Shown: in pieces, positions 3,001 through 40,080 of the stretch | Numbering within the stretch: the stretch's first letter is position 1 | Layout: every line of letters starts with the position of its first letter | Origin: Candidatus Woesearchaeota archaeon | Lineage (GTDB): Archaea; Nanobdellota; Nanobdellia; Pacearchaeales; GW2011-AR1 | Length of the DNA: 64,000 nt | Direction: 5' to 3' | Assembly (NCBI GenBank): GCA_964612685.1 | Contig: CAZTCF010000002.1 | Location: 212-64,211 of the forward strand | The notes under the pieces: model-generated | What the model saw: the letters and a program-made list of their open reading frames with translations, nothing else | Told to the model about the DNA's origin: nothing | The model's database searches: none | Position numbers and translations under genes: made by a program

Positions 3001-3060
3001 CAATATCTAGAGAACCACATTCAGAACTTCCAGCACCAGGATTCAATATTATTCTTCTGT
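1..3060 (-). repeat. Intragenic tandem duplication of a roughly 1.5-1.65 kb beta-helix module within the giant gene, seen as two diverged copies (about 1640..3060 and about 1..1640)
   Basis: Parallel peptide landmarks sit about 1650 nt apart. NCSYDSE...RWYY(K/Q)AYVNDSSG appears near 1950 and near 300. (N/Y)xNDSN(E/I)FNFTITQN appears near 1650 and near 10. PG(P/A)...C...TLT(E/G)NISS appears near 3050 and near 1600. Confidence 0.6.
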
Positions 3061-12117: not shown

Positions 12118-12150
12118 GACTTAATTAAAGTCCCTAAGCATAAAACAAAA

Positions 12151-13269: not shown

Positions 13270-13291
13270 AAAAGATGATAAAAAAACAAAT

Positions 13292-13969: not shown

Positions 13970-14139
13970 AGAGATTAACTCTTAAATTTTTAGTATTTAT
14001 CCAAAAAAATAACTTTACTCCTAATTATTAAGTACTCATATTTACAATCCTGTTACAGATAACTTAATTTAATAAGAGATTATTCATAACTTAATATTTA
14101 AAAACTATCGAGGATATATTATTTTAGAGGTAGTAAAAT

Positions 14140-16400: not shown

Positions 16401-17428
16401 AATTCTTTTGGAAGTAGTTTTTTCAATTCATTTGTATTAATTTTATATGCTCTTATAAAAGAATCGTTAACATGTGCATACAATATCCCTTCATCTTTTC
16501 CACTTCTTAAAAAATCTGAACTAAATGTAATTGTTCTTGCATCGGGATCCTCAAATAAACATTCGGGTGCAATCCAAGGAACTTTTCCAGTTTCAGGATT
16601 ATAAATTATCAATCCAGGCCTAAATTTTCCATGAACTTTTTCTCCATTAACAATCTTTTTGACTTCCCTCCCATTTATTATACCCACGACTAAATCTTTA
16701 TTTTTAAGAGAAATAAAATCCCTAGGAAAAAGAATCATTGGAGAAGTTTCCCCCTTACACCAAGAATATTTCATTTTTCTAGGATCTAAAACAATCTCCT
16801 TAAATTTCCACTCCCCTCCAAGTTCTTTTCCTTCAGCCGAAATAGTTACTGACAATTCATCATTATTAATCACAAGTTGAGCTTCACTTAAATTAATCCT
16901 ATATCCTTTTTTATTTATAGGGGAGATTGTAACTTCCTTAAATCCTCTGAATTCTCCAACAGGAGATAAAACGGGTTCCGTTGCAGTTAATTTTTCTATT
17001 GAAGCCCCTTGAGCATGTCCCAAATAAACTGCATATCCCACTTTTTCTTTGTACTTAAAAGCAATCGTAAAATAAACATGCTTAATTTTTCCCTCATTTA
17101 TTATATCGGGATCTTCTAACCCAATAAAATATTTATCCTTCCCGGATAATTTTCTTATTACCTCGTTAATTCCCTTTATCTCCAAATCCCCTCTCTTTTT
17201 CCATTTTAACCCCTCCTTGCTTTCAACAACTATTAATTTACTCTCATCAATAAATCCTGGCTTATCTGGAGTTCCCTGACTCTTAGTAATCTCCCTTGCT
17301 AAACCAAGATAAGGATTCTTTGTTTCCTTATCAATTGAAATCGCCATTACTCTCTGTTCAGCTTTAACTGTCCCAAAAACAGGTTCAGAATACATAGAAA
17401 CAGCATTATTTAATTTCACCAATTTCAT
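16397..17428 (-). CDS. GH130/DUF377-like beta-propeller glycosidase-related protein
   Basis: 343 aa. GLEDPDIINEGKIKHVYFTIAF and ILYAHVNDSF motifs resemble the GH130 family. Convergent with the six-hairpin GH. Confidence 0.4.
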   Translation of the reverse strand: MKLVKLNNAVSMYSEPVFGTVKAEQRVMAISIDKETKNPYLGLAREITKSQGTPDKPGFIDESKLIVVESKEGLKWKKRGDLEIKGINEVIRKLSGKDKYFIGLEDPDIINEGKIKHVYFTIAFKYKEKVGYAVYLGHAQGASIEKLTATEPVLSPVGEFRGFKEVTISPINKKGYRINLSEAQLVINNDELSVTISAEGKELGGEWKFKEIVLDPRKMKYSWCKGETSPMILFPRDFISLKNKDLVVGIINGREVKKIVNGEKVHGKFRPGLIIYNPETGKVPWIAPECLFEDPDARTITFSSDFLRSGKDEGILYAHVNDSFIRAYKINTNELKKLLPKEF

Positions 17429-17458
17429 TATTAATTAAATATAGAGAGTTATTTAAAA

Positions 17459-18652
17459 TTACTCTTTTAATTCTAGAACTTCTTGTTCATCAGATTCTTC
17501 TTCAGATTCTTCCTCGTTCATATCAAATTCTTCTTTTATTATATCAAGCATCCTCTTAGCTATAACATTGTAATCAAAATTAGCAACGGCATGTTCTCTT
17601 CCTGCCATTCCCATCTCTTCTCTTAAATTTTTATCCATCAATAACATTTGAGTATATTTCTTCAAATCATCCACATTAGCCCTATATCCAAATGTTTTTG
17701 GGACTGTGAATTTCATCTTGCTTTGTTCATTAAATCCCATATAAGGATAAACCCATTCCTCACTCAGCTTAACTTCCTCTGCAACTCCGGCTAAAAATCC
17801 TGTCTTCCCATGAATTATTGTCTCTGCAGGCCCTCCCACATTTATTGAAATAACCGGTTTACCACAAGCCATTGCCTCAACCTGTATCATCCCAAACCCT
17901 TCTATTCTTGAAGGAGCTGCATAAATATCACACGCGTTAAGCATATTAGCTACAAATTCTGGTGAAAAGGTATCATCTAAGAATATTATTTTTTCCCTTA
18001 TATCTAATTCTTCGGCAAGAATCTCCTCAAATTCCCTCCATTTTTCTGCACACTCACTTGGCCAGGATTTACACACATAAACCCAATCTTTGAATTCTTT
18101 GTTTATTTCAGCTAAAGCTTTCATCATCTCCTGAGCACCCTTTGAGGTAACATCTCCTCCCATAGTTAAAATCATTGTTTCATTATCCTTTACTCCTAAA
18201 AGTCTTCTTAATTTAAGATTCTCTTCAGGATTATTGTTTGGTTTGAAAAGTTTTGTATCAATACCTATATGCATTGGAATAATTTTAGATACATCCACCC
18301 CATCTCTTTCATAAATACTTCTTACCCAGGCACTTGTTGTGAACATTAATCTTAATTTTTCAAATTCTTCTCTGTAATTAGCAACCCATCCATCTGCATT
18401 AAACCAAGGAATCACAATATGTCCGTAATGTTGTGTGTCTTGAACAATTTCAGGAACATTTCCCCAGAAACCTATTCCAATAACAAAATCAGGTTTTAAG
18501 TATTTTAAATAAAATTCTTTCTGAATACTTTCTTTGTAATGACATTCAAAAACTTCTACTCCAAGATTTCTTAATCCACGAGCCAAATAATGCCCTTGAA
18601 GACTTACCCCGTCAGATTCAACAGGATAAGGATAAAGTAATAAACATCTCAT
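17459..18652 (-). CDS. GT4-family glycosyltransferase (group 1)
   Basis: 397 aa. EX7E-type motif region RIEGFGMIQVEAMACGKPVIS. Acidic C-terminal tail. Confidence 0.75.
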   Translation of the reverse strand: MRCLLLYPYPVESDGVSLQGHYLARGLRNLGVEVFECHYKESIQKEFYLKYLKPDFVIGIGFWGNVPEIVQDTQHYGHIVIPWFNADGWVANYREEFEKLRLMFTTSAWVRSIYERDGVDVSKIIPMHIGIDTKLFKPNNNPEENLKLRRLLGVKDNETMILTMGGDVTSKGAQEMMKALAEINKEFKDWVYVCKSWPSECAEKWREFEEILAEELDIREKIIFLDDTFSPEFVANMLNACDIYAAPSRIEGFGMIQVEAMACGKPVISINVGGPAETIIHGKTGFLAGVAEEVKLSEEWVYPYMGFNEQSKMKFTVPKTFGYRANVDDLKKYTQMLLMDKNLREEMGMAGREHAVANFDYNVIAKRMLDIIKEEFDMNEEESEEESDEQEVLELKE

Positions 18653-18660
18653 TTTAATTT

Positions 18661-19287
18661 TTATTTTCTCAAATCAAATGCTTCGATTTCTTTGCAAGAT
18701 TCTTCTTCAAATCCTCCCTTCTTGTATCCATAAACCTCTTCAATTATCATTTTCTTCATTTTAAGATAAGGTTTTTTTAATTTTATAAGTTTATCTGCAT
18801 TAGAGTTGTATATTGCATATCCCTGATACTTATTTTTAATTTTCTTGTAAGAGAAAAAATAAATTTCCTCTGCAAGCAATAATCCTCTACGCAACATCTC
18901 CTCTACAGCTTTGTGCACATCCAAGTGTCTTACATGTCCATATTCACCTTTTTTCCCATGTGTATAAAGAGCATCATATAACTTATTCTGGGTTACTTCT
19001 AAAATTCTTTTTATTATCTCTTCTGAAGAAACTTCTTTGTATACTCCTGATTCTTCTCCATCATCTAAATCAAAAATATATCCTTTAACCCCTAAAACCT
19101 CACAGGCTTTTTTGAATTTAGGGTATCTATCCTTATCCTCCTTTCTGCATAAAGAAATGACTGTAATATTAAATCCTCCTTTCTCCTTCATCTTCAACAA
19201 AGTTCCTCCCATCCAAATTGTCTCATCGTCTGGATGAGCAACAACAACAAGAACTTCTTTATTTTTATTCACAACACTCCTCACCAT
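18661..19287 (-). CDS. PIG-L/LmbE family N-acetylglucosaminyl deacetylase
   Basis: N-terminal VVVAHPDDETIWMGG motif (zinc-binding HPDDE). Confidence 0.75.
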   Translation of the reverse strand: MVRSVVNKNKEVLVVVAHPDDETIWMGGTLLKMKEKGGFNITVISLCRKEDKDRYPKFKKACEVLGVKGYIFDLDDGEESGVYKEVSSEEIIKRILEVTQNKLYDALYTHGKKGEYGHVRHLDVHKAVEEMLRRGLLLAEEIYFFSYKKIKNKYQGYAIYNSNADKLIKLKKPYLKMKKMIIEEVYGYKKGGFEEESCKEIEAFDLRK

Positions 19288-19375
19288 TTCTCCAACAGGA
19301 AAGTTTTTAATTAAATAAATCTTTCTACAAGGATAAAAAGAGGATGAATAAAGAGGTTATAGTTAATAATAAAAA

Positions 19376-20305
19376 ATGAATTTTGATGTTGTAAGTTTTG
19401 GTTCTGCTGTTGTGGATGTGTTCATTCACACAGATGTATCTGAAAAAAGAGGATTCATGAATTATCCAATAGGAGAAAAAATACTCATAAAAGATTTAAA
19501 ATTTGATGTTGGGGGAGCAGGAACAAATACTGCTGTTGCATTTTCAAGATTAGGATTAAAAACAGGATGTATATGCGAATTTGGAGATGATGAGAATGGG
19601 AGAAGAATAAAAGATTTGCTTAAAAAAGAGAAGGTTAAGTTTTTAGGAAAGACAGTGAAAGGAGAATTAACGGGATATTCTGTTGTTTTAGATAGTAAAG
19701 GGGGAGATAGAACCATTCTTACATATAAAGGAGCAAATGATGAAGTAAGTTTAAGTGATATAAGTAAGTTCAAGGCGAGATGGTTGTATTTTAGTTCTCT
19801 TTTAGGAAAGAGTTTTGAAACTCAAAAACAAATTGCAATTAAATCAAAAGAGAAAAGAGGAACTAAAATTGCCTACAACCCAAGCAGTTATCAAATAAAA
19901 AATTTAAACATCCTCCCCTTACTAAAAATAACTGATATCTTAATATTAAACAAAGAAGAGGCAGAGATGCTCTTAAAAAAATATAAACCAAATGAAAACA
20001 ATTTACTTTTAGGGCTATATAAGATTACGAAAGGGATCATTGTTATAACAGACAAAAACAAACCAATCTCCTGTTATGATGGAAATAGAAAATACTCAAT
20101 AAAACCCCACAATGAAATTAAAGTTGTTGAAAGAACAGGTGCTGGAGATGCATTTGCTTCAGGATTCGTTGGGGGACAGATAGCAGAAAAAACAATTACT
20201 CGCTCTTTAGAATTAGGAATAAAAAATTCTGAATCAGTTATACAACACTTTGGAGCTAAAAACAATTTAATCCGAATGAAATTAAAAGAAAAAGAACAGC
20301 TATAA
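19376..20305 (+). CDS. PfkB-family carbohydrate kinase (ribokinase-like; candidate phosphofructokinase/sugar kinase)
   Basis: DVGGAGTNTAVAFSRLG N-terminal motif and C-terminal TGAGDAFASGFV PfkB signature. Sits immediately upstream of FBA and TIM. Confidence 0.8.
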   Translation: MNFDVVSFGSAVVDVFIHTDVSEKRGFMNYPIGEKILIKDLKFDVGGAGTNTAVAFSRLGLKTGCICEFGDDENGRRIKDLLKKEKVKFLGKTVKGELTGYSVVLDSKGGDRTILTYKGANDEVSLSDISKFKARWLYFSSLLGKSFETQKQIAIKSKEKRGTKIAYNPSSYQIKNLNILPLLKITDILILNKEEAEMLLKKYKPNENNLLLGLYKITKGIIVITDKNKPISCYDGNRKYSIKPHNEIKVVERTGAGDAFASGFVGGQIAEKTITRSLELGIKNSESVIQHFGAKNNLIRMKLKEKEQL

Positions 20306-20353
20306 AAATAAATAAAAAAATAAACTAAAAGAAAAGATAACCTAAAAAATAAA

Positions 20354-21109
20354 ATGAAACCAATCAACCTAAAAAAACTAACAACAAAAGGAAAAGCGCT
20401 TTATCTTGCATATGACCAGGGTTTAGAACACGGACCAAGCGATTTCAATGATAAAAATGTCGATCCTAGATATATAATTGATATTGCTAAGAAAGGAAAA
20501 TACAATGGAATTGTATTCCAGAAAGGAATAGCAGAGAAATACAACAAAGAAATCAAAGCAAGTAAAATACCCCTCATAGTAAAGCTTAATGGAAAAACTA
20601 ATTTATTCAAGGGAGAACCTATATCTAGACAACTATGTACTGTTGATGAAGCGATAAAACTGGGAGCATCCGCAGTTGGATATACTATTTACATTGGAAG
20701 CGATTCTGAAGATGAATCTTTCCAGGAATTTGAAGGGATACAAAGAGAAGCTCACAAGAAAGGACTTCCAGTAATAACCTGGATATATCCAAGAGGAAAA
20801 TCCCTCAAAGGTAAAAAACCAGAAGAGTTAATGGTATATGCAACACGAACAGCCTTAGAGATTGGAGCAGATATTGTTAAAATTCAATACGCAGGAAAAT
20901 TAAAAGACCTCCAATGGGCTGTTAAGTCTGCAGGTAAAACTAAAGTTGTTGTTGCAGGTGGAACAAAGAAAGGAGAAAAAGAACTCATCAAACAAATTCA
21001 TGAAATTATGGAAGCTGGATGTATTGGACTTGCAATTGGAAGAAATGTTTGGCAACATCCTAAGCCACTTGAAATTACAAAGAAGATAAAGGATATAGTG
21101 TTTAAATAA
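20354..21109 (+). CDS. fba: Class I fructose-bisphosphate aldolase, archaeal DhnA type
   Basis: 251 aa TIM-barrel. LIVKLNGKTN, VKIQYAG and GLAIGRNVWQ regions match the archaeal FbaB/DhnA family. Confidence 0.65.
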   Translation: MKPINLKKLTTKGKALYLAYDQGLEHGPSDFNDKNVDPRYIIDIAKKGKYNGIVFQKGIAEKYNKEIKASKIPLIVKLNGKTNLFKGEPISRQLCTVDEAIKLGASAVGYTIYIGSDSEDESFQEFEGIQREAHKKGLPVITWIYPRGKSLKGKKPEELMVYATRTALEIGADIVKIQYAGKLKDLQWAVKSAGKTKVVVAGGTKKGEKELIKQIHEIMEAGCIGLAIGRNVWQHPKPLEITKKIKDIVFK

Positions 21110-21208
21110 ATAATAAAAAATTAAATTATAATAACTAACCTAGCTCATCATCATAATCAACCTACATTAAGGAGTTGTATAGATAACTAAACCTTACTCA
21201 AACAAAAA

Positions 21209-21844
21209 ATGAAAAAACCAATCATTGTAATAAATCTTAAAACATATCAACAAGGTGAAAAATCAGTTAAAATTGCAAAGGAAATTGAGAGAGTTGATAA
21301 AAATATAATTCTGGGAGTTCAAGCAAGTGATATTTATGAGATTGCAAAGAAAACAAAACTTAAAGTTTATGCACAACATGTTGATCCCTTTGAACCCGGC
21401 AGAAATACTGGATATATCCTGCCGGAAGCTGTAAAGAAAGACAAAGCAATAGGAGCTTTCCTTAATCATTCGGAACACAAGCTAACTCTAGATGTAATAA
21501 AAAAAACCATTGCACGTTGTAAAAAAATAAAACTAAAGACAATGGTTTTTGTGAAAGATATTAAACAAGCTAAAGAAATTGAAAAACTCCACCCAGACTA
21601 TCTTATATACGAACCTCCAGAACTTGTAGCAGGAAATATTTCCATTAGCTCAGCAAAGCCTGAAATAATTAAGAATCTTTCAAAGAAGTTAAAGAAAACA
21701 ACACCCTTCCTGGTTGGTGCTGGAATAAAAACCCGAGAAGACATAACCCTATCAATGAAGTTAGGAGCATCAGGCATTGCAGTCTCTTCAGCAATAACAC
21801 AGGCTAAGATACCTGGAAAGAAATTGAAGGAACTTATAGCTTAA
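21209..21844 (+). CDS. tpiA: Triosephosphate isomerase, short archaeal type
   Basis: 211 aa. PIIVINLKTY, NHSEHK and IYEPPELVAGNISISSAKPE match the archaeal TIM signature (EPPELIGTG variant). Confidence 0.8.
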   Translation: MKKPIIVINLKTYQQGEKSVKIAKEIERVDKNIILGVQASDIYEIAKKTKLKVYAQHVDPFEPGRNTGYILPEAVKKDKAIGAFLNHSEHKLTLDVIKKTIARCKKIKLKTMVFVKDIKQAKEIEKLHPDYLIYEPPELVAGNISISSAKPEIIKNLSKKLKKTTPFLVGAGIKTREDITLSMKLGASGIAVSSAITQAKIPGKKLKELIA

Positions 21845-25534: not shown

Positions 25535-27133
25535 TTATCTGGGATCAACAACTTTTCCAATGAACAGAATATTTCCAGTTTCCTTTTCCTGAATTATAAA
25601 TATAAACGGATGATCTGCCCTAAACTCTATAAATCTTGGCATTGCAGCTCCAAAACCCATACTGACTATAGTTGCTGCAGCTGCTTCTGTGCCTTCTTCA
25701 TAAACATCAATGTAAGCCTTGTGCAGGACTTCATCAATGTAAAGCATTTCTGTTCCATCTATTCCTGAAAAATCTGCACCTGGCCAGACAAAAGGAAGGC
25801 TCATCCCCATACTTTTTAGATAATCTGTTAATGAATAAGTTGTTTCAAAATGATATTTTGGAAGATAAATAAAAACTATTTCAGGTTCCATTTCGCTTCT
25901 CCACTCCTTGAGTTTTTCTTCACTTAAAATTGATTCTAAGTGTGTAATGTTGCTGAGAGAGAGGTTTTCATTTAATCCAAATTCATATTTATAGTAATTG
26001 TATTCATCATCTTCAGAAGCTTCTGTTCTTGGAAGAAGTACTAGCATGGATATTTTGTCTCCCTTATAAGGCATTTCAAGTATCTGAATTCCATCAGATT
26101 CGCAGTAGTTGAATTTCAATTCATCATCCCTAAGTTGCATCGTAGGAATTTGTACTTTTTTACCTGATTCAAGAGTAAAATCTTTTTGTTTTGTATCTTT
26201 TTTATCAAACTGATGTTCCCACTTTCCTTTGAAATAAATAGCATTAGTCAGAACAGCGCGTGTTAAAGGATCAAACATGTTAGGAGAAGCTATATTCTTT
26301 ATTTTATTGTTTGTATTCTTTGAGACCCAATTATTTATTTCAGAACTTGCTTGCCCGGGATTTTTTACAAAATCAAGAGTATTAACGTTTCCTAGATAAT
26401 ACCTGCTTATTGTATCTTTGTACTCCTGTAAAAAAGGATAATCTTCCTGTAACCAGATTGCATTTGCTGTACTTAATTGGTATTTTCCTCCTCCTTTATT
26501 TATTGTGTTTAACATATTTGCATAAGAAGATCTTCTTAAAGAATCCTCTTCAGGGAAATAGAATACATTTTGGATTTCATTAGCTGTTTCTCCTCTGGCC
26601 CCTTCATATACCATTGCCATTGCGTTCGATATACTCCATGGAGAAAAAAAGATATTTCCTTCAGAATCATCTTTTATTTTAGAATATAAATCAATAGAAA
26701 ACTGATTGTTCGCTCTTACTGCCTCTTCTACTCCTTCTGCTGTTGCTCCTCTATCATCTGCAGCTTTAACAAAAATATCACTCATTCCAAGATTAAAAAA
26801 ACTATACAACAAAATTCCTATTAATATTATTAAACTTAAAACAATCAATTTCTTTTTATTCCAGTTTATCTTGTTTTCGAGGATCCCAAAAAATGCAATT
26901 AAGCTACAAGAAATAAGATAAAACCAAAGAATATCTAATATTAATCCAAGAAGCATTCCAATTATTCCAAACATGCCAAAGAAAAATATAGGAAATATCA
27001 TTATATATAATATAATAAGGGGTATTTTTGTCAACCCCGTACTTTCAGATTTGAAAAACAAAAAAACCGCAAAAGCCAAAAGAAGAATTGTCAAAGCTAT
27101 TTTTTTCCAGTTACATTTAAAGAATTCACCCAT
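25535..27133 (-). CDS. Serpin (inhibitory-type serine protease inhibitor) fused to an N-terminal polytopic membrane domain (about 3-4 TM helices)
   Basis: Serpin core motifs NAIYFKGKWEHQFDKKDT, a hinge/RCL EEGTEAAAATIVSMGFGAAMPRF and a C-terminal FRADHPFIFIIQEKETGNILFIGKVVDP. The N-terminal 120 aa is strongly hydrophobic (IALTILLLAFAVFLFF, IPLIILYIMIFPIFFFGMFGIIGMLLGLIL, LIVLSLIILIGILLYSFF). Confidence 0.8.
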   Translation of the reverse strand: MGEFFKCNWKKIALTILLLAFAVFLFFKSESTGLTKIPLIILYIMIFPIFFFGMFGIIGMLLGLILDILWFYLISCSLIAFFGILENKINWNKKKLIVLSLIILIGILLYSFFNLGMSDIFVKAADDRGATAEGVEEAVRANNQFSIDLYSKIKDDSEGNIFFSPWSISNAMAMVYEGARGETANEIQNVFYFPEEDSLRRSSYANMLNTINKGGGKYQLSTANAIWLQEDYPFLQEYKDTISRYYLGNVNTLDFVKNPGQASSEINNWVSKNTNNKIKNIASPNMFDPLTRAVLTNAIYFKGKWEHQFDKKDTKQKDFTLESGKKVQIPTMQLRDDELKFNYCESDGIQILEMPYKGDKISMLVLLPRTEASEDDEYNYYKYEFGLNENLSLSNITHLESILSEEKLKEWRSEMEPEIVFIYLPKYHFETTYSLTDYLKSMGMSLPFVWPGADFSGIDGTEMLYIDEVLHKAYIDVYEEGTEAAAATIVSMGFGAAMPRFIEFRADHPFIFIIQEKETGNILFIGKVVDPR

Positions 27134-27214: not shown

Positions 27215-27260
27215 CTAAAACCTCTCCCTCTTCCCATACTTCGTATGCAGCAACTTTTCT
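27215..27260 (-). repeat. Copy 3 of the conserved 3-prime-end element, here inside the coding 3-prime end of hydA (encodes ...LLHTKYGKRERF*)
   Basis: cctctccctcttcccatacttcgtatgcagcaacttttctgc with aattaatt upstream. About 90% identical to copies 1 and 2 over about 35 nt. Confidence 0.8.
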
Positions 27261-28921
27261 GCTTTCTTGCTAAGTGGCTGTCCTAGATACTTCTTGTAAA
27301 TATCTTTCACAATTGGATTTTCATGAGAACGTCTGTATTCACGCATACTGTCTTGCTTGTAAAGTGCTTGAGCTCTAAGTGTTAGCACTTTATCATCAGA
27401 GTATATTGGTTGTCCTCCTCCACCCACACATCCTCCAGGACAAGCCATCATTTCAATGAAATCATATTTGTCTTTATTTCTTAGAAGCTTTCTTATATTT
27501 GCTCCTCCAGACGCTGTAGCATAACGTATTTTTCTTCCATTAAGCATTATTGTCCCCTCTCTTATACTGCTATCTTTTGTTCTTAGATTTTGAAATTCAA
27601 CTTTTTCGAGACGTTTTTTTGTTGAGAGTTCATATGCTGTTCTTAATGCAGCTTCCATAACCCCTCCAGCTGCCCCAAAAATATCTCCTGCCCCACTTGC
27701 TAATCCCAGTGTTGGATCAAAATTGGAATCTTCTAGATTTGCAAAATCAATATTTTTTTGTTTTATTAATCTTCCAAGCTCTCTTGTTGTTAAAACATAA
27801 TCAACTCCTGTTTCTAATTCTGGTCTTGTTGACTCAAACTTCTTTGCTGTACATGGCATTATGCTCACCACGATTATATCCTTAGGATTAATCTTTGCAA
27901 GTTCTGCATAATAACTTTTTATTAACATCCCAGACATTTCATGAGGAGATTTACATGTTGACATATTAGGTATTAATTCTGGATAAAAGAATTCCATCAT
28001 TAATATCCAAGATGGACAGCAAGTTGTAATTAAAGGAAGCACTGCTTTTTTCCCCTGTTTCAATCTTTTAAGAAGTTCAGCTGATTCTTCCATTATTGTC
28101 ATATCTGCTCCTAAGTCAACATCAAAAACTTTATTGAAACCACATTTCTTTAAAGCAGAAACCATTTTTCCTGTAACTAAAGTTCCTGCAGGCATATCAA
28201 ATAATTCTCCTAGGCTTGCCCTTACTGCAGGAGCTGTCTGAGCTACAACATGCTTTTTAGGATTGTTTAATGCTTTGATAACTTCAGGAAGATGTGTACG
28301 TTCACTTATAGCCCCAACAGGACAATTAATTAAACACTGTCCACATTCAATACATGCAACATCTTCTAATTTCTTTTCATCGTATGGGGTTACATGTTCA
28401 TTATGAGCTCTACTTGAAAAGTCAATAGCATATATTTCTTGAATTTTACCACACACCTGAACACATTTACCACAATTAATACATTTATTGTTGTCTCTTA
28501 TTATTGCAGCACCTAAATCTGGATGATAATCTTTAATTGATTTGAATCTTTCATATTCAATTCCAATCTGGTCATACACTTCCTTTGCTTCAAAATCCCC
28601 TCCTAATTCTTTATATTCGATATCTGGACTCATTAATTCAAGATTGATTTTTCTTGATTTGATTATTTTTTCAGAATTAGTTACAATTACTGCATTCTCA
28701 ATAGGCTTTGTTGAACAAGACGTAACTAATTTTCCATTCATCTCAACTAAACACACCCTACATCTTGCTTCAGGAAAAAGATTTTTGTGGAAGCAGAGGG
28801 TTGGAATTTTGATATCGTTTTCTTTACAAATTGTTAAAATTGTTTTATTTGGGTCCACATCAAGTTGTTTGTTGTCTAGGGTTATTTTCATTTTAATGTT
28901 TGTAAAACTCTCCTTGCCCAT
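27215..28921 (-). CDS. hydA: [FeFe]-hydrogenase catalytic subunit HydA, multi-cluster form (N-terminal 2Fe-2S + His-ligated 4Fe-4S + 2x4Fe-4S + H-cluster domain)
   Basis: H-cluster motifs L1 ITTCCPSW, L2 IMPCTAKKFE and L3 IEMMACPGGCVGGGGQP. N-terminal plant-ferredoxin-like C-x11-C-x2-C...C, NuoG-like H-x3-C-x2-C-x5-C (HPDLG...CINCGKCVQVC), and CIECGQCLINCP ferredoxin motif. Confidence 0.85.
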   Translation of the reverse strand: MGKESFTNIKMKITLDNKQLDVDPNKTILTICKENDIKIPTLCFHKNLFPEARCRVCLVEMNGKLVTSCSTKPIENAVIVTNSEKIIKSRKINLELMSPDIEYKELGGDFEAKEVYDQIGIEYERFKSIKDYHPDLGAAIIRDNNKCINCGKCVQVCGKIQEIYAIDFSSRAHNEHVTPYDEKKLEDVACIECGQCLINCPVGAISERTHLPEVIKALNNPKKHVVAQTAPAVRASLGELFDMPAGTLVTGKMVSALKKCGFNKVFDVDLGADMTIMEESAELLKRLKQGKKAVLPLITTCCPSWILMMEFFYPELIPNMSTCKSPHEMSGMLIKSYYAELAKINPKDIIVVSIMPCTAKKFESTRPELETGVDYVLTTRELGRLIKQKNIDFANLEDSNFDPTLGLASGAGDIFGAAGGVMEAALRTAYELSTKKRLEKVEFQNLRTKDSSIREGTIMLNGRKIRYATASGGANIRKLLRNKDKYDFIEMMACPGGCVGGGGQPIYSDDKVLTLRAQALYKQDSMREYRRSHENPIVKDIYKKYLGQPLSKKAEKLLHTKYGKRERF

Positions 28922-29106
28922 TTTCTATCAGACTCTTTTTCTTTTTCAGATAATTTTGAATAAGGTTGTTTTATTTGTTTTTTCCATCTTTCTATATTTT
29001 CTTTTGTAAGATTCTTAAGCATATAATTAGTCCAGTGGGCCCATTGCTTATGTTCTAGATTAGCTAACTTTTCTATTAACGTTTTATCTTCTTGATTTAT
29101 TTTCAT
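28888..29106 (-). CDS. Small Trp/Lys/Glu-rich protein (72 aa from MKINQEDKTL...) encoded between hydB and hydA, translationally coupled
   Basis: ATG at 29106..29104 overlaps the hydB TGA stop (29105..29103) as ATGA. Its 3-prime end overlaps the hydA start by 34 nt. The track's longer 28888..29190 ORF extends into the hydB coding region. Confidence 0.4.
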   Translation of the reverse strand: MKINQEDKTLIEKLANLEHKQWAHWTNYMLKNLTKENIERWKKQIKQPYSKLSEKEKESDRKWARRVLQTLK

Positions 29107-30239
29107 TTTTTGATATACTCCATGTAATCCCCTTTGAAGTGTTCTAATGAAGTGAGTATATGAGCTGTTGAAGATTGTCCTAACCCGCACAAGCTAGTTT
29201 CTTTTATATGATATGAAAGCTCTTTCAACATCTCTAAATCTTTTTCATTTGCTTTTCTATCTCTAATCTTTTTTAGAATATTCAATACTCTGATTGTCCC
29301 CTCTCTACATGGAGTGCATTTTCCACATGATTCGTAAGTGTAAAATTTAGCTATACTTAAACAAATATCCACAATATTCCTATTTTTTCCTATAAAGATA
29401 ATTGTAAATGCTCCGTGCTGACAATCTTCTTTACATATCGTTTCAGTTGTTACCAACGAATTCTTATCTATAGGCATTATCCCACCAAAACATCCAAAGG
29501 AGAGAGCTTTTATTTCCTGAGTTGGTTTAACCGTATCAAGAATTGTTGACATCTTAACTCCTAACTCCCATTCATATATACCTGGATTTTCAACATCCCC
29601 TGAAATTGAAAAAAGCCTCAGATTTGGATTCCAATCTTTGTAAAGTAAAGCTTGTGCAACACAAGTAAGTGTTTCAACATTATTCAAAACAGTTGGACTC
29701 TCCCATAATCCCTCTTCAGTAGGGTAAGGGGGTTTGTACATTGATTGTCCTCTATATCCCATAATTGATTGCATTATTGCAGTCTCCTCCCCACAAATAT
29801 ATGCTCCTGCCCCTCTTACTATTTCAATCTCAACCTTATTTTGCATTTTAGATTTTTTAATTACTTCTTGAATTGTGTTTTCTAAATCTTCTCTTAAAAA
29901 TTCATACTCATTTCTTAAGTAAATAAATGCTCTTTTTACGCCTAGGACATAAGAAGCAATTAAGATGCCCTCAATTAAAGTTTCTGGATTATTTTTTAAA
30001 ATAAATCTATCCTTGAATGTTCCAGGTTCTCCCTCATCAGCATTACATATAAGATAAATTTCTTTAGATTTATTCTTTTTTTTACTATTAAGAGCAAGCT
30101 TCCACTTTTTTGCGAGTGGAAAGCTTGCACCACCTCTTCCTACCAAAGATTTTTTTTCAAGAATTTGTAGTACTTTTTCTGGCCCTAATTCTTTTGCAAG
30201 TTTCAATGCTTCAAGGTTTGTTTCTCTTAATATTTGCAT
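29103..30239 (-). CDS. hydB: NuoF-like NAD(P)H-binding flavoprotein subunit of the hydrogenase (HydB, minimal 378-aa form)
   Basis: GRGGASFPLAKKW (FMN/NADH region, like the NuoF GRGGAGFPTG.KW) and the 4Fe-4S motif ESCGKCTPCREGT. Confidence 0.8.
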   Translation of the reverse strand: MQILRETNLEALKLAKELGPEKVLQILEKKSLVGRGGASFPLAKKWKLALNSKKKNKSKEIYLICNADEGEPGTFKDRFILKNNPETLIEGILIASYVLGVKRAFIYLRNEYEFLREDLENTIQEVIKKSKMQNKVEIEIVRGAGAYICGEETAIMQSIMGYRGQSMYKPPYPTEEGLWESPTVLNNVETLTCVAQALLYKDWNPNLRLFSISGDVENPGIYEWELGVKMSTILDTVKPTQEIKALSFGCFGGIMPIDKNSLVTTETICKEDCQHGAFTIIFIGKNRNIVDICLSIAKFYTYESCGKCTPCREGTIRVLNILKKIRDRKANEKDLEMLKELSYHIKETSLCGLGQSSTAHILTSLEHFKGDYMEYIKK

Positions 30240-30275
30240 TTTTTGTATTATTTTATTTGTTAATTTTTAATTTGA

Positions 30276-30722
30276 CTATTTCTTCTTCAATTCATTTAAT
30301 AGCTTCTTTACTCTTTCGATAGTTAATTTGGTAAGGGGTTTTCCATTAAGAAGCATTGCAGGAGGTTCATCACAACATCCTATGCATGAAGTTTTATACA
30401 CTGAGAATTTCTTGTCTTTTGTTGTTTCACCAATTTTAATTTTGAGTTCTTTCTCAATGAACCTCTCTATATCCCTGCTTTCATTTAACACGCAAGTAGG
30501 TGAACCGCACAACTCAATTATGTATTTTCCTTGAGGTTCTGTTCTGAACATAGTGTAGAATTTAACAACCCCATATATTCTAGATATAGGAATTTGATAT
30601 TTGGTGCTAATTTGTTTCATTGCATCCACAGAAATATATCCTTTTTTATCCTGCTCCTCATGAAGAATGTTAAGCAAGATATCCTCTTTTTTCTCCCCTT
30701 TTTTTTCTTGTTTTTTCATCAT
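30276..30722 (-). CDS. hydC: NuoE-like thioredoxin-fold 2Fe-2S subunit (HydC)
   Basis: 148 aa, CGSPTCVLNESRD ... SCIGCCDEPP cysteine pattern of NuoE/HoxE. First gene of the hydC-hydB-x-hydA string. Confidence 0.75.
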   Translation of the reverse strand: MMKKQEKKGEKKEDILLNILHEEQDKKGYISVDAMKQISTKYQIPISRIYGVVKFYTMFRTEPQGKYIIELCGSPTCVLNESRDIERFIEKELKIKIGETTKDKKFSVYKTSCIGCCDEPPAMLLNGKPLTKLTIERVKKLLNELKKK

Positions 30723-30807: not shown

Positions 30808-31140
30808 ATGAAAGTGGTGAAAAGACCCTGGGGAATATTTAAACAATTTGCGCTTAATGAAAAATGTACTGTCAAAATTCTTGAAGTTAAACCAATGCAG
30901 GAATTAAGTTTACAGAAGCATAAAAACAGAGAAGAAAAATGGTATTTCATTACCCCAGGAATTGTTCAGATTGGGAAAAACATAAAGAAAATAAAAGAAG
31001 GAGAGATGGTAAAGATAAAAAAGAACACCCCACATAGACTTTTGGCAGGAGTAAATAAAGTTAAGGTTCTTGAGATATCATTTGGAAAATTCGATGAACA
31101 TGATGAAGTAAGGTTGGAGGATAAATATAATCGTAAATAG
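30808..31140 (+). CDS. Cupin-domain protein (mannose-6-phosphate isomerase type II C-terminal-like)
   Basis: 110 aa. LSLQKHKNREEKWYFITPGIVQIGK cupin motif 1-like and a PHRL region. Confidence 0.55.
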   Translation: MKVVKRPWGIFKQFALNEKCTVKILEVKPMQELSLQKHKNREEKWYFITPGIVQIGKNIKKIKEGEMVKIKKNTPHRLLAGVNKVKVLEISFGKFDEHDEVRLEDKYNRK

Positions 31141-31145
31141 ATAAA

Positions 31146-31961
31146 ATGACAAAAGTTATAGCAATTGATTTGGGGGGAACAAACCTTAGAGTTTCTCTAG
31201 TTAAAAACAACAAGATAATAAAATATGTAAAAAACAAAACCCCAAAAACCTCCAAAGAACTTATTGATTTAATGTTCAAAAACATTGAATTCCTAATGGA
31301 AAAGGATGTTGAGGGTATAGGAGTTGCAAGTGCTGGACCATTAGAAAAGGGGATAATAAAAAACCCTCCTAATCTTCCTTTAAGAAATTATAATCTTAAG
31401 GGAGCTCTTGAAAAAAGATTCAAAAAGAAAGTTGAAATATGTAATGATGCTCACTCAGTTGCTATTGCCGAATTAAAATTAGGTGTAAAGAAAAAGAACT
31501 TCATTGTCTTAACTCTTGGAACAGGGGTTGGAGGAGGAATAATTATCAATGGGCAATTATATGAAGGACAAGGATACGGGGGAGAGATGGGACATATTAT
31601 TCTTGACAATGGAAAAACATTTGAGAAATTAGTTGGATGGAAATACACAAAAGAATTATCCAGAAAAGCTTTTGGAAAAGAATTACTGATTAATGATTTA
31701 ATAAAGATGGATAATAAAAAAGCAAAAGAGATATTACACACAATAACAACTCATCTTGCACAAGGAATTGGAAGTTTAATCAATGTATTTGATCCAGAAG
31801 TTGTTGTTTTAGCAGGAGGGGTAAGAGAAACAGGTTCTGCCTATCTTAACCTTATTAAAAAAGAAGCTAAAAAATATTCAATCCTTCCAAGAAACACCCC
31901 TATTCAATGGAGTAAACTTGAACACCCTGGAACCTTGGGAGCAAGTTTGTTGATAAAATAA
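31146..31961 (+). CDS. ROK-family sugar kinase (glucokinase-like)
   Basis: IAIDLGGTNLRVSLV N-terminal ATPase motif, with GVGGGIIINGQLYEGQGYGGEMGHI (ROK Gly-rich/His region). Confidence 0.75.
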   Translation: MTKVIAIDLGGTNLRVSLVKNNKIIKYVKNKTPKTSKELIDLMFKNIEFLMEKDVEGIGVASAGPLEKGIIKNPPNLPLRNYNLKGALEKRFKKKVEICNDAHSVAIAELKLGVKKKNFIVLTLGTGVGGGIIINGQLYEGQGYGGEMGHIILDNGKTFEKLVGWKYTKELSRKAFGKELLINDLIKMDNKKAKEILHTITTHLAQGIGSLINVFDPEVVVLAGGVRETGSAYLNLIKKEAKKYSILPRNTPIQWSKLEHPGTLGASLLIK

Positions 31962-31962
31962 A

Positions 31963-32832
31963 ATGCCAAAACATCATATAAAAGCAAAAAGAATAATCTC
32001 TCCAGTAAGAATTGACTTTGCCGGAGGAACTACTGATATCTCTCCATTCAAAGATAAATACGGGGGGTGCGTATTAAATGCAACAATAAACAGATATGTG
32101 GAAGGAGAACTTATTGTTAACGACAAAAAAACTCATCTCGAATACACTGGAAATATCCCTACTTCCTCAGGATTAGGAACTTCTGGAGTTATGAACCTGG
32201 TCTGGTTAAGTTTAATCTCACAGAAAATTAACAAATTAGATGATAATGCAAGAAAAAAATTATCTGAAACTGTTTACAAAATGGAACAAGCAATGGGATT
32301 GGTAGGCGGGAAACAAGATCAGTATGCAAGTGCTTTTGGAGGAATAAACCTAATGAGATTCAATAAAGACAATGTTGAGGTAGAAAAATTAAAACTAAGA
32401 AAAGAATTCATTAAAAAATTAGAAAGTAAACTGGTTTTAGTTTATACGGGAAAACCACATTTTTCAGGAAACACTAATGGGGCAATGATGGATAATCTAA
32501 GAAAAGGAAAAAACAACTCTAATCTACTTAGAATAAAAAAAATTGCACTTGAAATGAAAGATGCTCTACTTAAAGAAGACCTGGAAAAATTTGCAGAATT
32601 AATGAATCAAGAAACTGGTGAAAGAAAGAAGCTTCACAAAAGCATTGTTCCAGAAAGCACACAAAAAATAATTTCCCAGGCAATGGAAAACGGAGCAATT
32701 GCAGCAAAAGTCTGCGGTTCAGGAGGAGGAGGAAGCATACTTTTTTTCGGAGACAAACAAAAGCTAAAACAAAAATTTAAGGATAAAGTAATTGATTTCA
32801 AATTTGACTTTCAGGGTTTAAGAATTTTGTAG
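31963..32832 (+). CDS. GHMP-family sugar/sugar-phosphate kinase
   Basis: GHMP motif IPTSSGLGTSGV and C-terminal KVCGSGGGGSILFF. Confidence 0.65.
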   Translation: MPKHHIKAKRIISPVRIDFAGGTTDISPFKDKYGGCVLNATINRYVEGELIVNDKKTHLEYTGNIPTSSGLGTSGVMNLVWLSLISQKINKLDDNARKKLSETVYKMEQAMGLVGGKQDQYASAFGGINLMRFNKDNVEVEKLKLRKEFIKKLESKLVLVYTGKPHFSGNTNGAMMDNLRKGKNNSNLLRIKKIALEMKDALLKEDLEKFAELMNQETGERKKLHKSIVPESTQKIISQAMENGAIAAKVCGSGGGGSILFFGDKQKLKQKFKDKVIDFKFDFQGLRIL

Positions 32833-39977: not shown

Positions 39978-39980
39978 AAT

Positions 39981-40080
39981 AGCCCCACCAGGATTCGAAC
40001 CTGGGTCCCGGCCTCTCTTCATCTTATCTATTTTCAAGATACCAAAGGGCCGTATACTTGACCACTGTACTATGGGGCTA
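39981..40080 (-). tRNA. tRNA-Gln (anticodon TTG) containing a 27-nt intron at the canonical 37/38 position
   Basis: Minus strand AGCCCCA-TA-GTAC-AGTGGTCAA-GTAT-A-CGGCC-CTTTGG[TATCTTGAAAATAGATAAGATGAAGAG]A-GGCCG-GGAC-CCAGG-TTCGAAT-CCTGG-TGGGGCT-A. The exons give a 73-nt cloverleaf with archaeal A1-U72. Confidence 0.7.

Follow-up and report, generated by a model that had tools for sequence, protein, structure and literature searches.

The locus described here raises the question of whether an [FeFe]-hydrogenase operon lying among archaeal genes belongs to its host, and whether the enzyme it encodes bifurcates electrons or passes them from NADH to protons along a single path.

Gene limits and genomic context

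The operon consists of four co-directional ORFs on the minus strand at positions 27215-30722 of the 64-kb stretch of DNA analysed (the window). In the order of that strand these are hydC (30276..30722, 148 aa), for a NuoE-like thioredoxin-fold [2Fe-2S] subunit; hydB (29103..30239, 378 aa), for a minimal NuoF-like flavoprotein with FMN and NADH sites and one [4Fe-4S] cluster; a small ORF (sORF, 28888..29106, 72 aa) for a RyR-like three-helix protein; and hydA (27215..28891, 558 aa), for the catalytic [FeFe]-hydrogenase. The hydB TGA overlaps the sORF ATG and the sORF TGA overlaps the hydA ATG, both junctions reading ATGA. The limits first given for the sORF and HydA differed from these and were corrected; public gene calls match the corrected limits (72 aa, 29106-28888; 558 aa, 28891-27215).

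The archaeal context proposed in the initial annotation is borne out by genes for RadA, aIF2-alpha, an RPA-like/DUF2240 protein and a GAN-like DHH nuclease, and by a 100-nt intron-type tRNA that we count among the archaeal markers. Around the operon lie glycolytic genes (GAPDH, PGK, TIM, aldolase, PfkB and ROK kinase), which recur near the operon in its relatives, and its closest relatives carry the label Pacearchaeota or Woesearchaeota. The approximately 50 window ORFs scanned include no radical-SAM or HydF-like protein, so that the reported absence of hydE, hydF and hydG stands, but not over the 35 kb claimed for each side, as the window reaches only 27 kb and 33 kb from the operon. Domain, motif and marker evidence together uphold the original description: a group A [FeFe]-hydrogenase coupled to NuoE/NuoF subunits, a DPANN host, and no maturases within sight. 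The three-subunit [FeFe]-hydrogenase operon is genuine, and its host is a DPANN archaeon.

Distribution, ancestry and selection

The same hydC-hydB-hydA operon occurs in about 57 DPANN genomes, with gene order kept in 55-57 loci and hydC directly upstream of hydB in 55. All named matches among the top 120 HydA homologues are DPANN; about 60 DPANN loci show 55-95% HydA identity, after which identity falls to 41-46% in bacteria. HydA and HydB each form a monophyletic, archaeal-only clade in neighbour-joining trees, the bacterial comparison set having been retrieved by two HydA peptide patterns and so not being an unbiased sample. The GC content and codon usage of the operon, for which a check against neighbouring genes had been suggested, are typical of the window. 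Purifying selection is evident throughout, with dN/dS values of 0.03-0.11 overall (HydA 0.09-0.11, HydB 0.04-0.09, HydC 0.03 against locus L020), and a homologue, locus L029 (MAG.78), was transcribed in situ (PMC11606122). Because it forms a separate clade in some 57 genomes, has native codon usage and shows these low dN/dS values, we conclude that the operon is an inherited, functional enzyme and not the recent lateral acquisition that had been considered. The region is best read as a native, expressed-type DPANN operon for a predicted cytoplasmic heterotrimeric [FeFe]-hydrogenase, HydABC.

It might still be argued that a bacterial operon had been joined to archaeal DNA during assembly or binning, or had been transferred very recently, given that [FeFe]-hydrogenases are mainly bacterial and that one related locus (L074) is labelled Pseudomonadota. 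This explanation is effectively refuted already: the hydC-hydB-sORF-hydA-serpin arrangement is identical in at least five independent assemblies or samples, the operon is also found on DPANN contigs as long as 648 kb and on a closed Woesearchaeota chromosome of 919 kb, its composition is native with the nearest bacterial HydA only 41-46% identical, and the archaeal information-processing genes that share the contig contradict mis-binning of a bacterial one.

Neither is the enzyme type rare. The second of the two origins first offered, one of the rarely reported archaeal [FeFe]-hydrogenases, is correct as to the archaeal type but not as to rarity: Greening et al. (Cell 2024) describe 'group A3' HydABC from six or more DPANN phyla, most of it lacking HydEFG maturases, and in their account no other archaeal [FeFe]-hydrogenase type is as widespread (PMC11216029). 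The DPANN three-subunit [FeFe]-hydrogenase is therefore already known and the window operon is a further member of a published group.

The catalytic subunit

HydA matches the profiles Fe_hyd_lg_C (1e-90), Fe_hyd_SSU, Fer2_4 and 4Fe-4S dicluster models, and clears TIGR02512 ('[FeFe] hydrogenase, group A') with 489 bits against a cutoff of 406. Its modules are an N-terminal [2Fe-2S] domain, two ferredoxin-type [4Fe-4S] clusters, the H-cluster domain and a small-subunit-like tail. All three H-cluster motifs noted initially are confirmed, as TTCCPSW, MPCTAKKFE and MMACPGGCVGGGGQP align to C299/C300, C355/K358 and C499/C503 of CpI; the proton path is likewise kept in this alignment (E279, E282, R286 and S319), and HydA has invariant Cys columns across 17 DPANN homologues. 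A NuoG-type His-ligated cluster had been assigned to HydA as well, but this [4Fe-4S] cluster (FS4C/A4) is missing, all four His/Cys ligands having been replaced (SPDIEYKELGGDFEA in the window HydA, corresponding in the alignment to SHNADCFECDKNLHC of T. kivui HydA1). Across the DPANN HydA clade the H-x3-C-x2-C-x5-C motif is lost by degrees. Among solved hydrogenases HydA comes closest to HydA1 of T. kivui (526 bits) and of A. woodii (491 bits), both catalytic subunits of bifurcating enzymes, with CpI further off at 462 bits, an observation that weighs against a non-bifurcating enzyme.

Without HydE, HydF and HydG the [2Fe] subcluster might never be made, leaving an Fe-S/NADH oxidoreductase or an inactive protein. 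The lack of a maturase in the 64 kb fits this idea, as does the finding of a full HydEFG set in only 5 of 130 hydrogenase-encoding archaeal genomes (PMC11216029). We nevertheless regard it as highly improbable, since the H-cluster ligands and proton-path residues are all invariant across the clade and HydA dN/dS is about 0.1, and since, according to the same text, archaeal [FeFe]-hydrogenases whose genomes encode no maturases bind the H-cluster and evolve H2 once matured artificially, and H2 is also given off by Ca. P. syntrophicum, itself a maturase-less archaeon. HydABC would be matured independently of HydEFG.

The small ORF between hydB and hydA

The sORF scores 26.8 bits against PF02026 (RyR), slightly below the cutoff of 27.4; its AlphaFold2 model has a pLDDT of 95 and fold searches gave unspecific matches. 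Its homologues fall into 129 clusters, one a 100% identical 72-aa gene call, and are also found in a Pacearchaeota glycolysis operon and in phage-like regions. Among 80 hydA loci fetched from reference genomes it is present in L020 only, the hydB-hydA junction of other relatives being occupied by a cytidine-deaminase-like or HD-domain gene. A role as an enzyme subunit was rejected on these grounds, and the operon membership implied for it at the outset gives way to that of a lineage-specific, mobile RyR-like gene in a variable junction slot, hitch-hiking by translational coupling.

The diaphorase subunits and the question of bifurcation

HydC matches 2Fe-2S_thioredx (PF01257) over its full length (1.1e-43) and scores 124.5 bits against TIGR01958 (nuoE_fam), under the cutoff of 142; its four Cys are read from the sequence as CGSPTC ... 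CIGCC. HydB matches Complex1_51K (PF01512, 9e-40) and NADH_4Fe-4S (PF10589, 1e-27) and nothing else, in agreement with the first description of a short protein without extra ferredoxin domains. Its alignment with Aquifex NuoF (262 bits) runs the full length of the two proteins, that with T. maritima, T. kivui and A. woodii HydB only over their residues 174-556, 176-560 and 146-529, respectively, so that both the N-terminal [2Fe-2S] domain and the C-terminal 2x[4Fe-4S] domain are lacking. Its NADH loop reads DEGEPGTFKDR, GGPSG is missing and there is no Cys outside the core.

This holds for the whole clade. All 57 of the 57 DPANN HydBs are bare NuoF proteins of 355-430 aa without any extra Fe-S domain, whose Cys all lie within the core and which have the loop DEGEPG[T/S]FKD and no GGPSG; missing from every one are the C-terminal 2x[4Fe-4S] bridge domain, the N-terminal [2Fe-2S], the Zn-hinge Cys and A232/M234. 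DEGDPGA[F/Y]M and GGPSG occur in the solved bifurcating HydBs and in every bacterial neighbour of the pattern-retrieved comparison set described above, and 10-14 extra C-terminal Cys in all of these but neighbour L076. The residue criteria are the discriminators of Losey et al. (2020; PMC7311640), of which F/Y at T. maritima position 367 is not alignable owing to a deletion in HydB; the same authors warn against treating the number of Fe-S domains as a full diagnostic by itself. According to Schut et al. (2022; PMC9304861) clusters B2-B5 are missing from non-bifurcating homologues and BfuB is defined by a 4Fe-4S ferredoxin domain, which the window HydB lacks, placing it outside the Bfu family as defined. 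The HydB C-terminal Cys are kept in all characterised bifurcating enzymes (Furlan et al., 2022; PMC9499530), and a fungal NuoE+NuoF+Hyd complex with the same cofactor logic is non-bifurcating by biochemistry (PMC13556243). The DPANN HydBs bear, in their sequences, the signatures of non-bifurcating NADH-dependent hydrogenases of the Syntrophomonas wolfei type, and the earlier suggestion of a 'possibly bifurcating' enzyme loses its footing in HydB.

The competing interpretation is an electron-bifurcating/confurcating HydABC that oxidises NADH and reduced ferredoxin together to yield H2, either without the HydB accessory clusters or with a partner encoded elsewhere. In its favour, HydA is nearest to the HydA1 subunits of the bifurcating T. 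kivui and A. woodii enzymes and the three-gene layout is the same; bifurcation would let NADH-driven H2 production run at higher H2 pressure; and both Greening et al. and the Lake Dziani Dzaha Woesearchaeota study assign the type to bifurcating A3. Such HydDB-type placement in 'A3', read as bifurcating by two papers, speaks against a non-bifurcating enzyme. The NuoF-like and NuoE-like cofactor templates of Greening et al. were, however, from a formate dehydrogenase (7E5Z) and not from a solved bifurcating HydABC. With every bifurcation-tied structural element gone from HydB and the Y-junction cluster of HydA also lost, we consider this interpretation rather unlikely. Rescue of bifurcation in trans is disfavoured because, of all ORFs in the 64 kb, HydA alone has a CxxCxxCxxxC motif, a search that revealed no ferredoxin-like ORF near the operon; only two DPANN loci have another such ORF nearby. 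A ferredoxin or extra Fe-S partner may be encoded outside the 64 kb, a point on the side of bifurcation.

Our preferred reading, to which we give a probability of about 0.6, is that DPANN HydABC does not bifurcate but forms a linear wire from NADH to H2, able to work only while H2 is low. It goes beyond the searchable literature, which labels these enzymes 'bifurcating'. The main text of Greening et al. (PMC11216029) does not discuss loss of the bifurcation-specific HydB parts or of the HydA His-ligated cluster; its Table S2 and Figure S1D may tabulate cluster motifs.

Proposed electron path and direction

In the proposed linear scheme NADH made by the neighbouring glycolytic enzymes would pass hydride to the FMN of HydB, from which single electrons would run through the HydB [4Fe-4S] (N3-like), the HydA N-terminal [2Fe-2S] and the two HydA [4Fe-4S] clusters to the H-cluster, where protons would be reduced to H2. 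The wire would be unbranched, with the HydC [2Fe-2S] off-path as in complex I. Because HydB lacks the ferredoxin-side clusters and HydA the His-ligated branch cluster, the three subunits would together form a non-bifurcating, ferredoxin-independent NADH:H+ oxidoreductase like S. wolfei Hyd1ABC, thermodynamically workable only when a partner holds H2 very low. NADH-to-H2 is endergonic under standard conditions, and for this reason the physiological direction and the need for an H2-consuming partner enter the scheme as assumptions.

The same non-bifurcating enzyme could run in reverse, oxidising H2 from neighbouring fermenters to supply NADH for reductive reactions, an idea that pictures a cell with little other redox machinery. 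H2-to-NAD+ is exergonic by established thermodynamics, S. aciditrophicus HydAB and S. wolfei Hyd1ABC work in both directions (PMC7311640), and the partners with which DPANN cells live, whether attached or intermixed, include both producers and consumers of H2. Fermenters, however, need an oxidant for NADH and not extra NADH, NADH-producing glycolytic genes surround the operon here and in many relatives, and no obvious NADH-consuming respiratory or biosynthetic sink lies near it, so that uptake appears improbable.

Comparison with known systems

The bifurcating HydABC enzymes (T. maritima 7P5H, A. woodii 7Q4V/8A5E, T. kivui 8A6T) provide the best solved HydA matches, and relatives of that type are 41-46% identical in HydA; redox-module order, the HydC [2Fe-2S] and the HydB FMN and N3-type [4Fe-4S] are shared. 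Their HydB is 599-630 aa as against 378 aa, with an N-terminal [2Fe-2S], a C-terminal two-[4Fe-4S] bridge domain, a Zn hinge, GGPSG and the NADH loop GAFMDR, whereas the window HydB has GTFKDR and none of the others, and the His-ligated A4 cluster that links protomers at the Y-junction is missing from the window HydA. Monomeric (M3) CpI of C. pasteurianum resembles the window HydA in H-domain, proton pathway, N-terminal [2Fe-2S], two ferredoxin-type clusters and size (574 against 558 aa), but it has the His-ligated FS4C, acts alone and is ferredoxin-dependent; the window HydA is without that cluster and is in every case accompanied by genes for HydB and HydC.

Group A3 HydABC (PMC11216029) shares the gene set, in which hydA is accompanied by genes for a NuoF-like HydB (the 'diaphorase') and a NuoE-like HydC, as well as the tie to sugar-degrading DPANN and the general lack of HydEFG. 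The host group is also the same, L029 being MAG.78 of a Woesearchaeota study that cites the class. It differs in that the paper treats the group as electron-bifurcating/confurcating, whereas the members examined here lack the HydB bifurcation parts, and in that the window HydA subclade has no His-ligated cluster. The hydrogenosomal Hyd + NuoE + NuoF of Caecomyces churrovis (PMC13556243, 2026) likewise combines an [FeFe]-hydrogenase with plain complex-I NuoE/NuoF and makes H2 from NADH without ferredoxin or a bifurcation centre, the same cofactor logic as in the window operon. It is, however, eukaryotic and organellar, its genes are not in an operon and its NuoF comes from mitochondrial complex I, an independent origin.

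S. wolfei Hyd1ABC (PMC7311640), to which DPANN HydB is likened through the published discriminators, differs in its bacterial host, the DPANN HydA/HydB lineage standing apart from the sampled bacteria, and in that the window HydA additionally lacks the His-ligated [4Fe-4S]. In common are the three-part HydA, NuoF-like and NuoE-like design, a beta subunit that is a plain NuoF with no extra Fe-S domains, T/S and K in the NADH loop and no GGPSG, and the predicted reaction NADH + H+ <-> NAD+ + H2 without ferredoxin, which would be feasible only at a few to tens of Pa H2.

Operon organization and gene limits

The hydrogenase operon consists of four closely spaced ORFs on the minus strand (window positions 27215-30722): hydC, which encodes a NuoE-like [2Fe-2S] protein of 148 aa (Pfam PF01257 at 1e-43); hydB, which encodes a NuoF-like flavoprotein of 378 aa; a small ORF of 72 aa (28888-29106, minus strand) lying between hydB and hydA; and hydA, which encodes an [FeFe]-hydrogenase catalytic subunit of 558 aa (Fe_hyd_lg_C at 1e-90, Fe_hyd_SSU and TIGR02512). 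The initial annotation was right that a four-gene hydrogenase operon is present, but its gene limits had to be corrected from the junction sequences. The hydB stop codon and the ATG of the small ORF share an ATGA overlap at 29106 and the small-ORF stop and the hydA ATG share another at 28891, and it is because of these overlaps that the two proteins are assigned 72 and 558 aa, lengths that agree with homologs and with public gene calls.

The operon is native and under selection and has been resident for a long time

The surrounding genes include archaeal ones (RadA, aIF2-alpha, an RPA-like/DUF2240 protein and a GINS-associated-nuclease-like DHH protein), together with a 100-nt tRNA on the minus strand at 39980-40079 (Rfam 53.8 bits, missed by ARAGORN) as is typical of archaeal tRNAs that carry an intron. 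Among the best 120 HydA homologs (60-95% identity) all those with names belong to Pacearchaeota, Woesearchaeota, Nanoarchaeota or Micrarchaeota. A survey of one genome per species, in which relatives were read as loci with flanks of up to 10 kb, gave about 60 DPANN HydA loci at 55-95% identity, among them loci on a closed 919-kb Woesearchaeota chromosome (CP070803.1) and a 648-kb Pacearchaeota contig (JBAZJQ010000001.1). Identity falls to 41-46% in Omnitrophota, Bacillales, Elusimicrobia and Spirochaetaceae. Gene order hydC-hydB-hydA is conserved in 55-57 DPANN loci, and neighbour-joining trees place HydA and HydB each in an archaeal-only clade. GC content is flat over the operon, in codon usage hydA and hydB are the 5th and 10th nearest of 45 genes to the mean of the window, and dN/dS is low for all three genes (hydA 0.09-0.11, hydB 0.04-0.09, hydC 0.03). 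The arrangement hydC-hydB-sORF-hydA-serpin is identical in at least five independently assembled samples. Because of this DPANN-wide occurrence, the archaeal-only clades, the composition, the dN/dS values and the independent assemblies, the operon is native, selected and long resident, not chimeric and not recently imported. The choice had originally been put as one between lateral acquisition and a rarely reported archaeal [FeFe]-hydrogenase. Composition and phylogenetic distribution rule out recent transfer, and what remains is an archaeal NADH-linked group A enzyme of the published kind, probably a non-bifurcating one.

Several DPANN-type hydCBA loci (short HydB, HydA identity 55-67%) are deposited under the labels ‘Pseudomonadota bacterium’ or ‘uncultured Methanosarcinales archaeon’ (fetched loci L074, on JBDRGF010000014.1, L021, L031, L032, L035, L051, L052 and L059); these labels are probably binning or labelling errors.

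Genes surrounding the operon

The hydrogenase lies within a sugar-catabolism island (11122-21844 and 30808-32832) carrying genes for GAPDH, PGK, a glucosamine-6-P isomerase-like protein, GH130, a GH100/GDE-like protein, a PfkB kinase, a DeoC-family aldolase, TIM, a mannose-6-P isomerase-type cupin, a ROK glucokinase and a GHMP kinase. Many of these recur beside hydCBA in relatives, including GAPDH, PGK, TIM, aldolase, PfkB and ROK kinase. The gene directly downstream of hydA (25535-27133, minus strand) encodes a complete serpin domain (PF00079 at 1.6e-115) preceded in the same protein by some 130 aa of multi-pass membrane sequence, and the hydA-serpin adjacency is common to five independent assemblies; to our knowledge membrane-anchored serpins are unusual in archaea. 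The left end of the window is occupied by a giant ORF (2-9016, minus strand; more than 3005 aa, continuing past the end). Its product, which looks like a DPANN-type giant surface protein, carries a TM segment at the N-terminus, an acidic Ser/Thr-rich repeat present four times (SYSETETPSKEESSPSQEESLTE), a block rich in Gly at about residues 1380-1560 and long N-x-T/S-rich, parallel-beta-helix-like repeats.

The small ORF is a passenger in a variable slot

The initial annotation listed the small ORF as a member of the operon, but it is absent from 55 of the 57 DPANN operons and, among 80 fetched hydA loci, was found only in the closest relative, L020 (dN/dS 0.25 between the two). Its family comprises 129 clusters, with proteins of 62-124 aa and the invariant pattern H-Q-W...W...Y...W...E-K..D-R.W. 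The small protein scores just below the gathering threshold of Pfam RyR (PF02026), and is modelled by AlphaFold2 as a three-helix unit (pLDDT 95) for which no specific match was found among the solved structures searched. Elsewhere the slot between hydB and hydA is filled by other genes: a cytidine-deaminase-like gene of about 133 aa (PF00383) in three loci (L001, L003 and L004, at ~7600-8004) and an HD-domain gene of 201 aa (PF01966) in a fourth (L051, 7405-8010). Over their first ~36 nt the RyR-type and deaminase-type inserts share about 86% identity; beyond that point they are unrelated. Both finish in a 4-nt ATGA overlap with the start of hydA. This shared beginning followed by complete divergence suggests that the body of the insert has been exchanged in place within a junction cassette. 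RyR-like homologs occur in a Pacearchaeota glycolysis operon of the order GAPDH-PGK-PfkB-[x]-2-hydroxyacid-dehydrogenase-aldolase-TIM, where they lie between the PfkB and 2-hydroxyacid dehydrogenase genes with a 4-nt overlap with pfkB, and also in phage-like regions beside DNA methyltransferase, terminase and portal genes (homologs in these two settings are at 4001-4237 in loci L086 and L087, 4001-4201 in L088 and 2122-2322 in L089). As a mobile passenger, the small ORF occupies a variable slot and is no hydrogenase subunit: a role as fourth subunit was rejected on its absence from nearly all DPANN operons, the occupation of the slot by other genes, and the phage-like and glycolysis-operon settings of its homologs.

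HydA retains the H-cluster ligands but has lost the His-ligated cluster

HydA scores 489 bits against the ‘group A’ model TIGR02512 (FeFe_hydrog_A, cutoff 406) and 705 bits, under the cutoff of 765, against NF040763 (‘NADH-dependent [FeFe] hydrogenase, group A6’). As had been read from the sequence at the outset, all three H-cluster motifs are present: TTCCPSW, MPCTAKKFE and MMACPGGCVGGGGQP match the Clostridium pasteurianum enzyme CpI column for column, the H-cluster ligands C300, C355, C499 and C503 (CpI numbering) are kept together with C299 and K358, and the motif columns are invariant in 17 DPANN homologs. Alignment with solved hydrogenases indicates that the proton-path residues E279, E282, R286 and S319 are also retained. 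From its sequence HydA is the catalytic subunit of a group A [FeFe]-hydrogenase with predicted activity, and related archaeal [FeFe]-hydrogenases are active after artificial maturation (Greening 2024, PMC11216029). With M3-type (CpI-like) enzymes it shares an N-terminal plant-type [2Fe-2S] domain (PF13510 at 4.5e-12) and a 2x[4Fe-4S] ferredoxin domain, which is matched by Fer4 dicluster models and has both CxxCxxCxxxC motifs; the cysteines concerned (C33, C44, C47, C59; C137, C140, C143, C147; C180, C183, C186, C190) are invariant in the 17 DPANN homologs. Unlike those enzymes, HydA lacks the (Cys)3His-ligated [4Fe-4S] motif H-x3-C-x2-C-x5-C. A ‘NuoG-type His-ligated cluster’ had been claimed for it, but all four ligands are substituted, SHNADCFECDKNLHC of Thermoanaerobacter kivui HydA1 reading SPDIEYKELGGDFEA here. 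In the fetched loci the motif is lost by degrees: it is intact in bacteria, reduced to H..C....C in the deepest DPANN branches and to two Cys lacking the His in the Micrarchaeota-type group, and gone altogether in the group to which the window belongs. In bifurcating enzymes this cluster is the Y-junction that connects protomers (Furlan 2022, PMC9499530).

Maturases and candidate partner genes

No HydE, HydF or HydG was found among the approximately 50 ORFs scanned in the 64-kb window, which bears out the initial annotation although the observation is not new: a 2024 survey had already described HydABC from archaea that lack maturases. In that survey the full HydEFG set was present in only 5 of 130 hydrogenase-encoding archaeal genomes and an alternative maturation route was proposed, and ‘group A3’ with HydB and HydC was the most widespread archaeal [FeFe]-hydrogenase, occurring in at least six DPANN phyla (PMC11216029). 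Only one non-metabolic neighbour of hydCBA recurs, a gene for a ~187-aa membrane protein that is probably Greening's ‘hyd6TM’. It is found in 27 of 64 hydA-bearing DPANN loci, placed either upstream of hydC in divergent orientation or immediately after hydA (for example at 5806-6369, minus strand, in locus L025). It is confined to Micrarchaeota-type and deep Woesearchaeota-type loci and is absent from Pacearchaeota-type loci, and as it is missing from the window and its subclade it was rejected as a conserved maturation or partner gene for this operon.

HydB is NuoF-like and lacks the features of bifurcating beta subunits

HydB matches PF01512 and PF10589 only and, as originally described, is unusually short and free of extra ferredoxin domains. 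Aquifex NuoF aligns with it end to end (262 bits); bifurcating HydBs align with it only centrally (Thermotoga maritima 174-556, T. kivui 176-560, Acetobacterium woodii 146-529). For comparison with such enzymes the 623-aa bacterial HydB of locus L068 was used as a bridge with which the A. woodii, A. mobile and T. kivui sequences were recovered, and a joint alignment was then made. In all 57 DPANN loci HydB is 355-430 aa long and has no Cys outside the NuoF core. The window protein stops just short of the CPAGVC...CxxCxxCxxxCP region of A. woodii and T. kivui HydB, and the C-terminal ferredoxin-type 2x[4Fe-4S] domain (IPR017896; clusters B3/B4) is absent, with no Cys after the core in any of the 57. 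Ten to 14 additional C-terminal Cys are present in all bacterial neighbours but L076 and in the solved bifurcating HydBs, and the C-terminal Cys are conserved in all characterised bifurcating hydrogenases (Furlan 2022, PMC9499530). The N-terminal thioredoxin-like [2Fe-2S] domain is missing too: 33 residues without Cys precede the GRGG FMN motif, as against 147-208 residues with 1-8 Cys in bifurcating HydBs. Apart from hydA, no ORF of the 64-kb window carries a ferredoxin-type Cys motif, and no nearby candidate to replace the missing HydB clusters was found; in only two DPANN loci does such a motif lie near the operon. The nearest HydB representatives outside DPANN are likewise short (361-392 aa) or fused to NuoE (~528 aa) and have no ferredoxin tail; the informative labels among them are Thermoplasmata, Micrarchaeota, Elusimicrobiales, Halanaerobium and Hydrogenobaculum NuoF.

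Residues 232 and 234 of the NADH loop (T. maritima numbering) and a GGPSG motif in the SLBB region have been proposed as discriminators, the non-bifurcating pattern being Thr/Ser at 232, Lys/Ser/Ala at 234 and no GGPSG (Losey 2020, PMC7311640). The loop reads GTFKDR in the window HydB and DEGEPG[T/S]FKD in all DPANN HydBs, compared with GA[F/Y]M[D/N]R, within DEGDPGA[F/Y]M, in the bifurcating references and bacterial neighbours, so that the bifurcating-type Ala/Glu232 and Met234 are missing. GGPSG is present in every bacterial neighbour and solved bifurcating HydB and absent from all 57 DPANN HydBs, the window protein having FGC-FGGIMP. HydB thus fits the non-bifurcating pattern in all three respects. 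By a further criterion of the same study, Phe at position 367 marks bifurcating and Tyr non-bifurcating enzymes (PMC7311640); this region is deleted in DPANN HydB, which makes the column unalignable, and the nearest aromatic is Y or F depending on the locus.

Proposed mechanism and its implications

We consider the enzyme to be a non-bifurcating NADH:H+ oxidoreductase, with a probability of roughly 60% from these sequence features. That it is bifurcating, as published, is unlikely. In favour of that reading, the best solved matches of HydA are bifurcating HydA1 subunits, but the initial suggestion of possible bifurcation sits poorly with a HydB that has neither the accessory Fe-S domains nor GGPSG and carries the non-bifurcating residue pattern. 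The hyd genes of MAG.78 (locus L029), which are transcribed in situ, were likewise called bifurcating A3 in a study of Woesearchaeota (PMC11606122). Our literature search found no paper joining ‘non-bifurcating’, ‘DPANN’ and ‘hydrogenase’, and the term ‘non-bifurcating’ is unused in the main text of Greening (PMC11216029).

In a non-bifurcating enzyme electrons would pass from NADH to FMN, the HydB [4Fe-4S], the HydA [2Fe-2S], the two HydA [4Fe-4S] and the H-cluster, with the HydC [2Fe-2S] placed off this path; the inventory of two [2Fe-2S], three [4Fe-4S] and the H-cluster would amount to about 22 Fe per trimer. Complex formation, electron path, direction and substrate specificity we infer from this cofactor inventory and its conservation, which are read directly from the genes. 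The NADH would probably come from the products of the adjoining glycolytic genes. Transfer of electrons from NADH to H2 is uphill under standard conditions. [quoted passage not shown] Somewhat more cautiously, we favour the wider view that the trimeric [FeFe]-hydrogenase, the most widespread hydrogenase of DPANN, is not electron-bifurcating and may be the most stripped-down NADH:H+ oxidoreductase known, a single unbranched wire with neither a ferredoxin site nor a Y-junction cluster that is matured without HydEFG.

DPANN metabolic and H2-flux models for anoxic sediments, groundwater and digesters take hydrogenase function from the database class label, and if the enzyme is NADH-only and non-bifurcating then reconstructions in which they are entered as ‘bifurcating A3’ genes are wrong. 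The cells would produce H2 without reduced ferredoxin and would require an H2 scavenger, which would link their energy metabolism to syntrophy or to association with a host. Pacearchaeota, Woesearchaeota and Micrarchaeota that ferment sugars could then shed glycolytic NADH as H2 only with a partner that keeps H2 at pascal levels, which would be a thermodynamic reason why they depend on hosts or neighbours that consume H2. As a compact NADH-driven H2 catalyst of three subunits, the enzyme would also be of biotechnological interest, and the operon adds one case to the question of how archaea assemble the H-cluster without HydEFG.

Comparison with characterised systems

Schut (2022, PMC9304861) defines BfuB, the beta subunit, by a ferredoxin-type domain, and it is this defining domain that the window HydB lacks. 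The same study describes non-bifurcating homologs, including the Syntrophomonas wolfei hydrogenase, as without clusters B2-B5. The operon resembles the S. wolfei Hyd1ABC type in combining HydA with NuoF-like and NuoE-like subunits and, in both, the beta subunit has FMN and one [4Fe-4S] only, the N3-type ligands of the latter being read in the window HydB as ESCGKCTPCRE and LCGLG. The cofactor logic is also identical to that of the hydrogenosomal Hyd+NuoE+NuoF complex of the fungus Caecomyces churrovis, which has been shown to be non-bifurcating (PMC13556243).
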